A stretch of DNA of 64,000 nucleotides from Lophium mytilinum (taxonomy: Eukaryota): NCBI GenBank assembly GCA_010093605.1, contig MU004190.1, positions 806,001-870,000 on the forward strand. Direction: 5' to 3'. Shown here piece after piece: positions 33,921 through 36,541 of the stretch; positions within the stretch are counted from its first letter, which is position 1, and each line of letters begins with the position of its first letter. The notes under the pieces are model-generated. The model was not told where the DNA came from, did no database searches, and was given only the letters and a program-made list of their open reading frames with translations. A program made the position numbers and the translations under genes.

Positions 33921-34628
33921 TCACTTCTCCCGCTCCTCATCTCGCTCCCCAACTATCTGCCCCGCCCTCCTCACATCCCTCGTCGTCACCTCCCGGCCCC
34001 CCCTCTCCGCCTGCGCCTGATCCAAAAACCTCCACGCCTCCTCCTTCCGCCCCTTCGTCAGCTCGCTCAGCTTCCCCACCGCCCGCACAAAACCCCCACT
34101 CCACTCCTCCGCTCCCAGCTCCCTCCTCTCCTCCCCCCTCTCCAACCGCTCCACCAATACCCCTTCCGCCGTCACGTCGAGCACCGCGCTCGCCCACCCC
34201 GCCGGCGGCGCGCGCTTCGTCGGGTTCCGCACACAGACGCCCTGCTCGTGGAGCGTGTACTTCAGCACAGGGATGGGCTCGGAGGGCGTGGAGCCGGCGC
34301 CGTGGTCGAGGCGGTAAAGAAGCGCGATGTGCGCGATGTCGTCTTGTGAGAGCACGGGGTCGCGCCAAGTAGAGGTTGGGCCGGTGGGGGTGAGGTGCGA
34401 GGGTAGGATCTGGTCTTGGTGGCAGAGGGACCAGTTGCGGCGGATGTCGCCGAGGATTTCGACGCGGTGGGAGGGGGTGGGTTGGTTGGTGGTCGTCTTG
34501 GGTGTAGACGCGATGGCGGGTTTGAGGTGTCCGGCGCGTTGCTCCGGGGTGGAGGGGGTGACGGGCATGGTTTGTGAGGTGGTGGGTTGACGGGGACGTT
34601 TTGTGTGGCTGGATGGGGTGGACGGCAT
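33921..34628 (-). CDS. Hypothetical protein, 235 aa
   Basis: Intact ORF preceded by CC-ATG; Pro/Thr-rich N-terminus and charged helical C-terminus; no recognised motif. Confidence 0.5.
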   Translation of the reverse strand: MPSTPSSHTKRPRQPTTSQTMPVTPSTPEQRAGHLKPAIASTPKTTTNQPTPSHRVEILGDIRRNWSLCHQDQILPSHLTPTGPTSTWRDPVLSQDDIAHIALLYRLDHGAGSTPSEPIPVLKYTLHEQGVCVRNPTKRAPPAGWASAVLDVTAEGVLVERLERGEERRELGAEEWSGGFVRAVGKLSELTKGRKEEAWRFLDQAQAERGGREVTTRDVRRAGQIVGERDEEREK

Positions 34629-34696
34629 GGTTATAGGTGGAGGTGAGGTTTTGGAGTTTGTGGCCGCGCGTGTGTGGTTGTGTTGTCAGAGATTCA

Positions 34697-35012
34697 ACCC
34701 TAACGATGATGAGAGTGTCGGCCTGAGCGCGGTAGACAGGTGAGTGAGTGGAAGCAGTTTATCGGTGTCTAATCATGATAAGTCGGTAAATTTTCGAAGC
34801 CCCCGAATGTATCTAAGCAGCGTTCGTTAAGGACGTCAGCCCTGGTGGGTGTAGGCTAATACGTTTCCTGGCGCCTCAGGTTCGATTCCCGGGCGTGTCA
34901 GAGTCGAAACAATGCATTTGCACGCTGCATGCGTTTCGTAGTGGAGGCGGATCTGATTCCTGAATTAATGGGATCCGCTATGACGGTCAGGTTGGGGGCC
35001 GTCTGAAAGGGT
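34697..35012 (+). ncRNA. Putative long C/D-box snoRNA-like structured RNA with internal Pol III B box
   Basis: Terminal stem ACCCT (34697-34701) / AGGGT (35008-35012); box C ATGATGA 34706-34712; box D CTGA 35003-35006; B box GGTTCGATTCC 34879-34889; several hairpins; T tracts immediately downstream. Confidence 0.7.
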
Positions 35013-35019
35013 AAATTCC

Positions 35020-35036
35020 TTTTTGCTCTTTTTTTT
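35020..35036 (+). terminator. Oligo-T tracts, candidate Pol III terminator
   Basis: T5 at 35020-35024 and T8 at 35029-35036, directly after the putative ncRNA. Confidence 0.55.
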
Positions 35037-35311: not shown

Positions 35312-36541
35312 ATGGCAACATACCGCCACCGCAACCCCACCCGCCCTTCACCTGCCACCGTCTCCGTGACCATGGAGCCCGACCAACTCAACCGCGACCT
35401 CACCAGCGCCGAAATCCGCATCCTCACCGCCGCCTCCCTCATCTCCCCCTCCCCAAATCCCGGCATGCGCACCGTCAGCGCCGCCGCCCTTTACCCCACT
35501 ACCAGCACCAAAACCCTCGAGCTCCCAGAGCACATGACCTCCGTAGCCGCCATGGAGCACGTCGGCTTCACCCCCGCCGCCGCTACCCAAGTCTTCAACA
35601 ACTACTACACGTGCCCGGACCCGGATAACTACCCCTACGGCCTCATAAGTCACGCCCACGACAAGGTCAAGCATCCCCGGTCTATGGCGCAAGTTGGGCT
35701 GAGGACGGAGTTCCAAGATGCGCTGCTGGATCCTACGTTCAAGGATGTGTTGAGGACGAACACGCTGTTGTACTGGGTTCAGGCGACGTTGTCGGGTAGG
35801 TATCGCATGCTGAGTGACTTGAGCGTGCGGTTGAAGCGGCTTGCGGAGAGGTTGGAAGGCAATTCTGCCGCGGCGCGTTGTCGTGGTGTGGAGATGCCAG
35901 AGGAGGTGATGAGGAGGCCGCCGCCGCGGCCGGAGGGGGAATGTTATCTGCTGTATAAGGGACAGGCGGCGCGCACGGTGTGGTATGCCGGAGAGGAGTG
36001 GGAGAAGGATGGGAGCTTCAATATGCGACAGCTGGCTAGCCTGCCGGTGCCCCCAGGGGATTTTAATGGTCGCATACCTGCTGTGTACTTCAATCTTGAG
36101 GCGGAGACGGCGGAGTTGTATAGGGCGTGGGCCGCGAGGCGGGACCAGTACTGCGAGACCTTGATGATTCGGGTTGAATTGCCGAAGGGTTATGTCGATG
36201 GCTTGAAGCAAGAGGAGGTGTTTTATGGGAAAAATTGGAAAGACTTGGCCTGGGTTCATCCCTCTCTGCATGGCACTCGGTTTCGGGAGTATAGGGAGGC
36301 CGAGCTTATCAAAGGGCATGTGTGCACAGGTGTGCAGAAGAAGAGATGGATGAAGGTTGAGGAAGTTCAAGAGAAGATATCGAAGAAGAATGCTATGAAG
36401 GTTCCCGAAAGGGACGAGGAGGTCATGGCGGTACAATGGGCTTTTTTGTCTGCAGAGCACGAGGGCCTGGGTGTGGCTAGTGCAGGGAATGTCTTTGTGG
36501 ATGTTATACCACCAGAGTGCTTGTTTGGGGAGTCGCCTTAA
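35312..36541 (+). CDS. Hypothetical protein, 409 aa; C-terminal half resembles DUF3990/ART-like motifs
   Basis: Intact single ORF with LYKG...GDFN..AVYFN..ETAELYRAWA and W...ELIKGHVC. Confidence 0.65.
   Translation: MATYRHRNPTRPSPATVSVTMEPDQLNRDLTSAEIRILTAASLISPSPNPGMRTVSAAALYPTTSTKTLELPEHMTSVAAMEHVGFTPAAATQVFNNYYTCPDPDNYPYGLISHAHDKVKHPRSMAQVGLRTEFQDALLDPTFKDVLRTNTLLYWVQATLSGRYRMLSDLSVRLKRLAERLEGNSAAARCRGVEMPEEVMRRPPPRPEGECYLLYKGQAARTVWYAGEEWEKDGSFNMRQLASLPVPPGDFNGRIPAVYFNLEAETAELYRAWAARRDQYCETLMIRVELPKGYVDGLKQEEVFYGKNWKDLAWVHPSLHGTRFREYREAELIKGHVCTGVQKKRWMKVEEVQEKISKKNAMKVPERDEEVMAVQWAFLSAEHEGLGVASAGNVFVDVIPPECLFGESP

Follow-up and report, generated by a model that had tools for sequence, protein, structure and literature searches.

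A candidate Pol III small-RNA gene family with a remodelled tRNA-Gly(GCC) head in Lophium mytilinum

tRNA genes can act as leaders for other RNAs. In Yarrowia lipolytica, tRNA-Trp(CCA) and RUF70 form dicistronic Pol III genes that occur in 13 dispersed copies, and the same work reports that 5S rRNA in Yarrowia and a C/D snoRNA in Arabidopsis have tRNA-Gly(GCC) as their leader (PMC2566860). In Neurospora, RNase Z excises the milR-4 RNA from the precursor of a tRNA, and milR-1 needs TATA-like elements and has neither an A box nor a B box (PMC3547838). The Aspergillus RNAs Afu-182, Afu-202 and Afu-309, as well as Afu-448, are intergenic, 270-320 nt long, without an assigned function and listed at one location each (PMC2377427); Li and Breaker's "atypical snoRNA" motif is mostly intronic and about 90 nt long (PMC5640933). 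The locus of Lophium mytilinum described here belongs, in the reading to which we incline on the basis of sequence comparison, to a seven-member family of Pol III small-RNA genes that is kept by selection, is analogous to RUF70, and has a remodelled tRNA head. Our literature search found no description of this RNA family (most subscription papers lay outside its coverage), and the passages compared from PMC8216456, PMC5824354 and PMC13015456 contained no match to it.

The window, i. e. the whole stretch of 64,000 nucleotides that was analysed (G000:C10:806001-870000), is part of a 43.4-Mb assembly in 49 contigs. The genes near the element include one of the FYVE/UIM Vps27-type and one for a ubiquitin hydrolase. 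The element is located between a divergent minus-strand ORF (33921-34685, first ATG at 34628) and an ORF with its first ATG at 35312. The ORF on the minus strand (33921-34628) has no Pfam match and starts about 70 nt from the 5' extension of the RNA unit; if it is a real gene, its promoter must overlap this extension. The ORF at 35312-36541 on the plus strand encodes 409 aa, again without a Pfam match. Its sole named sequence relative is from Mytilinidion resinicola (33% identity), and in the Atlas it lies next to hypothetical proteins of ascomycetes (0.96-0.97) and to clusters that have DUF3990 in one third of their members. This one match and the Atlas neighbours fit an ascomycete, probably of the Dothideomycetes. 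The first-pass annotation had called the element unannotated, and this holds: There is no Rfam match at gathering score in the whole window, ARAGORN calls no gene at the element, and at E<=10 only three trivial Rfam matches were obtained for it. Rfam contains models for some of the Afu RNAs; neither these nor U3 nor any other known Rfam family matches. For the complete family, loose E-values returned only short archaeal sRNA, DUF2800, mascRNA and Six3os1 matches, with the mascRNA match covering the T-arm alone (E 0.63 and 1.3), and none of the copies has an Rfam tRNA match. Neither an inspection by eye for known motifs nor Rfam gave a match to a self-cleaving ribozyme (HDV-like, hammerhead, twister), to SRP RNA or to an H/ACA RNA. 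The idea of a structured non-coding unit of the Pol III type that no ORF explains and that has no name in Rfam is supported by our work.

The motifs from which the element had been described as a highly structured C/D-box RNA of about 315 nt are all in place: ACCCT (34697-34701), box C ATGATGA (34706-34712), box D CTGA (35003-35006) and AGGGT (35008-35012), moreover the perfect B box GGTTCGATTCC at 34879-34889, which is the sole B box on both strands of the window, and the T5 (35020-35024) and T8 (35029-35036) tracts. An additional T4 run at 34791-34794, absent from the earlier annotation, lies inside the proposed transcript of about 315 nt. Of 60 shuffled windows, 37% contain a pair of boxes C and D with a 5-bp stem (mean 0.55), and the window itself has one such pair; taken alone, this arrangement is therefore near chance. 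As a rough estimate, a pair that brackets the element exactly is less probable by chance than the mere occurrence of such a pair. When 317 nt were folded, five of the seven hairpins named initially were favoured or at least weakly present: CGTTC/GGACG (pair probability 0.96-0.97) and the hairpins at 34947-34978 (about 1.0) and 34982-35003 (0.82) are strong, and the helices at 34905-34938 (0.1-0.3) and of the T-arm (0.13-0.15, with an A.C mismatch) are weaker. The terminal helix ACCCT/AGGGT reached 0.88-0.98. Two hairpins were not favoured, CCTG/CAGG with every pair at 0.1 or below, and AGCC/GGCT, which is outcompeted by a GCCC/GGGT hairpin at 34839-34850. High structure can thus not be claimed for the lone 317-nt sequence (z = -0.50; 32 of 100 shuffles were equally stable), but it can for the family of seven copies.

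This family came to light in a DNA search of the organism's own genome: There are seven full-length copies on seven contigs, 73-96% alike, i. e. the copy in this window, L001 (34687-35036), and the six sister copies L002 to L007 beyond it, which had not been seen in the first-pass annotation. Searches seeded with two other copies and a motif search returned the same seven and none further, and neither the three DNA searches of the genome nor the family model revealed truncated copies. The model, which was built from the same seven copies that it scores, gives them 230-296 bits over the full length, with L001 lowest (230). Six sites in the genome that match the motifs with two mismatches are not family members according to this model, and the tail motifs do not occur elsewhere in the assembly at 0-1 mismatch. 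All copies are intergenic by ORF listing, and over 10 kb the flanks share neither DNA beyond the unit nor a common protein. In the tree, L001/L002, L004/L005 and L006/L007 are sister pairs and L003 stands separate. All seven copies have a common core of 214-236 nt (34806-35019 in L001). A few hundred bases from L004 and L006, there are small elements with terminal inverted repeats of 35 and 50 bp (L152:4319-4655 with L153:2767-2888, and L154:5362-5917, respectively) that do not enclose the RNA unit; a relative of the one by L004, 75% alike, lies 2 kb from L005. No distant homologues were detected in metagenome, viral and prokaryote scans, with fungal genome collections outside the search: In a metagenome motif scan of 109 stretches, the family model had no match in 80, and four motif-only matches (at most 12.7 bits) in the remaining 29 were taken as chance; two scans of viral contigs and the prokaryote genomes yielded no homologue. 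Close relatives are found in two metagenome runs of one study, whose contigs, about 195 nt in length, match L001 at 95%, have six substitutions in common and, where the region is covered, lack the same 10 nt as L001. The contig of run X3 has seven listed substitutions, none of which clearly breaks a consensus helix, the pairing partner of 34982 being outside the contig. Since the runs were picked for holding this stretch, they carry no information on the flanks. No RNA run containing the L001 stretch and no near-identical X5 contig over L001 is listed, which says nothing on expression.

The L001 unit lies on the plus strand. It starts with a 5' extension (34687-34765) that is common only to L001 and L002 (67% identity), holds ACCCT, box C and GAGTGAG and has no common fold. 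An AT-rich upstream element like that of the tRNA genes of this genome, as judged by a tRNA upstream profile, follows at 34766-34805 and includes the T4 run. The 5' domain predicted by the consensus fold (34806-34865) is a helix of AATGTAT (34806-34812) and ATACGTT (34859-34865) that encloses hairpins at 34821-34835 and 34839-34850; the helix has a probability of about 0.5, and an alternative GCAGC/GCTGC helix of about 0.4. The piece derived from tRNA-Gly(GCC) (34862-34900) comprises an anticodon-loop remnant, the T-arm with the B box, the acceptor 3' strand and the discriminator A34900. Three hairpins form the tail, and their helices are 94-100% paired in the consensus fold, except for one at 90%. 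Tail hairpin 1 (34901-34939; helices 7-9 at 94-100% in the alignment) presents the loop TTTGCAC (34917-34923), of which TTGCAC is invariant in all seven copies; in L001, it lacks a 10-nt inner hairpin that the other six have. Tail hairpin 2 (34945-34979), seen in the alignment, the consensus fold and the 317-nt fold, comes after the invariant linker AGTGGA and is rebuilt in L001 as an 8-bp helix with a probability of about 1.0. Tail hairpin 3 (34982-35003) is 98% paired with two-sided change in two of seven pairs, and its last C is the first base of the proposed box D. The unit ends with a 3' single strand (35004-35019) that contains GTAA at 35011-35014 (GTAAGT in four of the seven copies) and with the T5 and T8 tracts (35020-35036) as the predicted Pol III terminator.

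The origin of the head was traced by comparison with 35 tRNAs that have a detectable B box. The 29 nt ending at A34900 match best to the organism's own tRNA-Gly(GCC), at 152 of 203 positions over the seven copies, as compared to 137 for the next best tRNA, and the alignment score was reached by none of 300 shuffles. Moreover, the family model hits a tRNA-Gly locus at 14 bits, L002 has 20 nt identical to tRNA-Gly(GCC), the register up to the discriminator is preserved, and four of the seven copies retain the Gly anticodon loop CGTTGCC. With the anticodon stem shortened on its 3' strand, the anticodon arm cannot form. The consensus fold gives the acceptor 3' strand a new pairing partner adjoining the T-stem and refolds the tRNA-derived piece into one long hairpin (34868-34901). 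An intact cloverleaf is absent, and ARAGORN calls only one copy of the seven, L003 as Pro-GGG, and not L001.

The promoter was compared with a tRNA reference set of 42 over-threshold matches (63 scored of 1386 candidates) and three tRNA-Gly(GCC) genes, of which 41 genes were used after leaving out three AT-rich organelle-like genes and one fragment; the comparison of AT peaks was made on 36. Among the tRNA-like genes, L194, L196 (G000:C21:185038-185849) and L197 (C44) are very AT-rich and look organellar, two of them being in a nuclear contig, and the tRNA-Ser-type genes L179 and L195 carry inserts of 50-60 nt past the anticodon arm that resemble mRNA-type introns. Both the tRNA genes and the seven copies have an AT-rich peak at -40..-20. 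With the upstream profile from the 41 tRNA genes, the copies score at a background percentile of 0.90-0.99, L001 being the weakest (0.90), and the element sits at an equal distance before a conserved GCAGC in all seven; in L001, the profile is negative 90-120 nt further up, at box C. An AATTTT motif that was considered as an Sm site is better explained by this tRNA-type upstream element. All copies have the B box, that of L007 with two mismatches. L006 and L007 are the only ones with a good A box, at the tRNA-equivalent place 17 nt after the inferred start; in L001, the A box is degenerate (best score 5.5, within background). The conserved fold starts at AATGTAT (34806), a T4 or T5 run is located 15-19 nt before the equivalent of 34806 in six of the seven copies, the core contains no T4 in any of them, and T5 is found 214-236 nt after the predicted start in all. 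For nine of the 41 tRNA genes, no T run in the 40 nt downstream exceeds T4. The position of the tRNA-type upstream element, the start of the fold and the placement of the T runs together point to transcription from near 34806, about 100 nt downstream of box C, which would give an RNA of 214-215 nt in L001. This start is provisional in view of the extension shared by L001 and L002 and of a 275-nt contig of run X5 that holds L002: Upstream of the predicted start, it extends for about 107 nt and ends 5 nt before the C-like box, where the DNA contig of L002 continues. The X5 contig comes from one study and is RNA by guess only, and contigs cannot mark a transcript start.

Several observations are consistent with selection on the fold. 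The consensus fold has a z-score of -3.2, which none of 200 column shuffles equalled, and 94.7% of the 435 cells of the consensus structure are paired; for single copies, the z-scores range from +0.1 to -4.2. Two-sided change is seen in 10 of 63 pairs, as compared to 5.0 in shuffles and 1-4 in slid controls, a count that is inflated by relatedness and by a structure derived from the same seven rows, and seven relatives give weak power. In a leave-one-out analysis, the 64 private substitutions break 9 pairs where 16.3 were expected (p 0.015), mainly due to L003 and L006; L001 (3 vs 3.0 expected) and L007 (3 vs 3.2) show no such depletion, and at otherwise invariant columns private substitutions are barely depleted (35 vs 38.3). 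The core diverges more slowly than the co-duplicated upstream flank in L001/L002 (22/196, 11%, vs 24/98, 24%; p 0.003) and in L006/L007 (35/203, 17%, vs 19/56, 34%; p 0.007), with no rate difference in L004/L005 (core 7/208 vs flank 3/49, p 0.29). Gene conversion limited to the core could mimic this signal. RIP was considered and rejected as an influence on the copies, which have 52-57% GC and a TA/AT ratio of 0.58-0.82, as compared to 1.56-1.88 in seven of nine larger RT-bearing stretches. The upstream homology extends 49-118 nt before the predicted start. Over -120..-61, L001 and L002 are 67% identical (z 6.3), and among the remaining 20 pairs only L004/L005 (z 3.4) lies above z 2.3, even though its aligned homology ends at -49. 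Four U1 and four U2 copies that were fetched have 50-150 nt of common flank, and three tRNA-Gly genes have none; the U1 and U2 copies thus indicate that a small-RNA gene can take its promoter along when it spreads in this genome. There are 17 U1-like matches in the genome, none of which reaches the Rfam cut-off, and nine U2 matches above it; they are dispersed, with L205-L212 among the places. The sequence upstream of the U2 matches and of U3 resembles, by eye, the 3' end of an mRNA-type intron (CTAAC), and a group I intron match (106 bits) follows the end of the 18S match and precedes 5.8S (L189:3182-3543, G000:C21).

The initial interpretation as a C/D-box or U3-like snoRNA of about 315 nt did not survive the comparison of the copies: The boxes are not conserved, no guide was found, U3 is encoded elsewhere, and the upstream element is not placed for such a start. 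Box C is exact only in L001; at the corresponding position, L002 reads ATGTTGA and the other five copies lack a box. CTGA is present in three of the seven copies, and its C forms the closing pair of hairpin 3, which is A-U instead of G-C in L002, the nearest copy. This base and its partner have changed jointly, so that it is the hairpin that holds the position. To the organism's own 18S, 5.8S and 25S rRNAs, spacers and U3, the longest Watson-Crick match is 11 nt, within the 9-13 nt of shuffles, and a duplex of the tail with the upstream end beats shuffles in one of the seven copies, L003 (the stem of L001 has 5 bp). GAGTGAG had been likened to box B of U3; no U3 model matches here, the similarity to the organism's own U3 is not significant (p 0.37), and that gene lies at G000:C8:1123042-1123257 (126.8 bits). 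The reading to which we give the least credence is a C/D-box (kink-turn) RNA of about 315 nt that starts near box C and is perhaps restricted to the L001/L002 subfamily. The boxes and the 5-bp stem are indeed exact in L001, L002 has one-mismatch boxes and a 4-bp stem at the corresponding places, the BLAST match between the two starts at box C, and the X5 contig covers most of the 5' extension of L002 before it stops next to the C-like box, an observation below the bar for a weak hint. However, the boxes are missing in most copies and the C of box D is engaged in hairpin 3; by the kink-turn rule, the change in box C of L002 falls on the A of the sheared G.A pair, the extension diverges faster and lacks a common fold (two-sequence consensus -4.15 kcal/mol), and Pol III would have to read through T4 in L001 and T5 in L002. 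It is also very unlikely that the tRNA-Gly-derived RNA is a decoy for the splicing machinery or modulates it. The loop (A/U)UUGCAC matches AUUGCAC of the organism's own U1 stem-loop II and U2 3' stem-loop, exactly in three of the seven copies; in U1 and U2, AUUGCAC serves as the U1A/U2B'' site. Moreover, the 3' end of the family can pair over 6-9 bp with the 5' end of U1, a value without a shuffled control. The loop 7-mer, a motif noticed after the fact, occurs 8 times in 106,800 flank bases, and neither U1 nor U2 is significantly similar to the family overall (p 0.12-0.71). A derivation from U1, U2 or U3 was rejected on the same ground.

A stronger competitor, although we consider it unlikely, is a low-copy tRNA-derived SINE whose Pol III transcripts are recopied by a LINE enzyme, with the fold kept only as a copying aid. 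The tRNA-related head, the unrelated body, the T-rich end, the dispersal in unrelated flanks and a pair that is 96% alike would all fit a SINE, as would at least 150 reverse-transcriptase matches in the genome. Low-copy tRNA-related SINEs of 140-493 bp are known from A. fumigatus (PMC5063351), and a poly(T) end has been described for Au SINE (PMC4223381), so that the T tail is compatible. On the other hand, the longest flanking repeats have 5-8 nt, as in controls, and those at -20 are inside the homologous unit, though old target-site duplications could have decayed; truncated copies are missing; and 148 of 150 RT matches contain stops. Using RIP-tolerant scoring, no similarity was detected to 39 RT loci (best 49 vs shuffles 39-52), most of which extend just 1.5 kb past the RT match and were not sorted into LINE and LTR; heavily mutated partners could be missed. 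Homology that passes through the upstream promoter would not be expected of a retroposed Pol III transcript, the start itself being inferred, and the core evolves more slowly than the flank in two of three sister pairs. The lack of an excess of target duplications and of RT similarity, the stops in the RT matches and the promoter within the unit lead us to favour the gene family over the SINE. Finally, the family may be real and L001 itself decaying or silent, or only a TFIIIC-bound DNA site, which we regard as improbable. This copy combines a degenerate A box with the weakest upstream score of the seven, a T-stem mismatch, the loss of 10 nt, the lowest model score and private changes that break pairs as often as expected, and it may be weakened. 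Yet its B box and terminators are intact, hairpin 2 has been rebuilt, the core is conserved above the flank in comparison to L002, and a 95%-alike relative exists in other samples.

For the preferred gene family, the following scheme can be proposed. TFIIIC would bind the B box and TFIIIB the AT-rich element, and Pol III would start near 34806 and stop at T5, resulting in an RNA of about 215 nt in L001 and 218-236 nt in the other copies. With its anticodon stem broken and re-paired, the tRNA part would no longer decode; it would serve as a promoter and as a hairpin resembling the T-arm and acceptor. The RNA would most likely be a folded particle that binds proteins via the invariant unpaired UUGCAC loop, the AGUGGA linker and the AGGNUGGG loop; a role as an rRNA guide is not envisaged. 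Probably, the intact RNA is the working form. By analogy with RUF70 and milR-4, a tail of about 120 nt might instead be freed by tRNase Z after A34900, a possibility that we rate somewhat lower; the consensus helix covers the discriminator position, and cleavage may therefore be hindered.

If the family is indeed a selected multicopy RNA, it would be a fungal counterpart of RUF70 in which a tRNA promoter has been turned into a new RNA gene in filamentous fungi, whose Pol III genes are poorly catalogued. If it is a SINE, it would be unusual in that the upstream promoter travels with it, in a genome where retroelements are nearly all mutated, and if no copy is transcribed, it would be a minor repeat. 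Among the known systems, box C/D snoRNAs including U3 (Rfam RF01846) share box C, box D and the terminal stem with L001 alone; unlike in these, the boxes of the family are not conserved, and there is neither a guide nor an Rfam match. The "atypical snoRNA" motif differs as a mostly intronic RNA of about 90 nt (PMC5640933). The Afu RNAs, compared by description, are listed at single locations as opposed to the seven copies here, and a remote relation is possible (PMC2377427). AfuSINE2 and MgSINE (PMC5063351) and Au SINE (PMC4223381) resemble the family by a tRNA-related head, an unrelated body, low copy number and, for Au SINE, a T-rich end, whereas here no target-site duplication or LINE-like tail was found, the promoter is co-duplicated and the fold covaries. 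With milR-4 and milR-1, the family has in common that they are Pol III RNAs of a filamentous fungus with T terminators; unlike the milR precursors, the family has a broken tRNA part, seven dispersed copies and no predicted long stem of the Dicer type (PMC3547838). The likeness is to RUF70, which was compared by description rather than by sequence: Dispersed units, a structured RNA right after tRNA position 73, a terminator only after this RNA and compensatory changes are features of RUF70 (PMC2566860), and in our family, too, the structured cargo, a tail of about 120 nt with three hairpins, begins right after position 73 with the terminator only beyond it. The leader of RUF70 is an intact essential tRNA and the product has been seen on northerns (PMC2566860), whereas the family is known from sequence and its head is a remodelled fragment of tRNA-Gly(GCC) that retains no more than the T-arm, remnants of loops and the acceptor 3' strand. 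This combination of a remodelled, non-decoding tRNA head with an unrecognised tail is a new form of a known plan.
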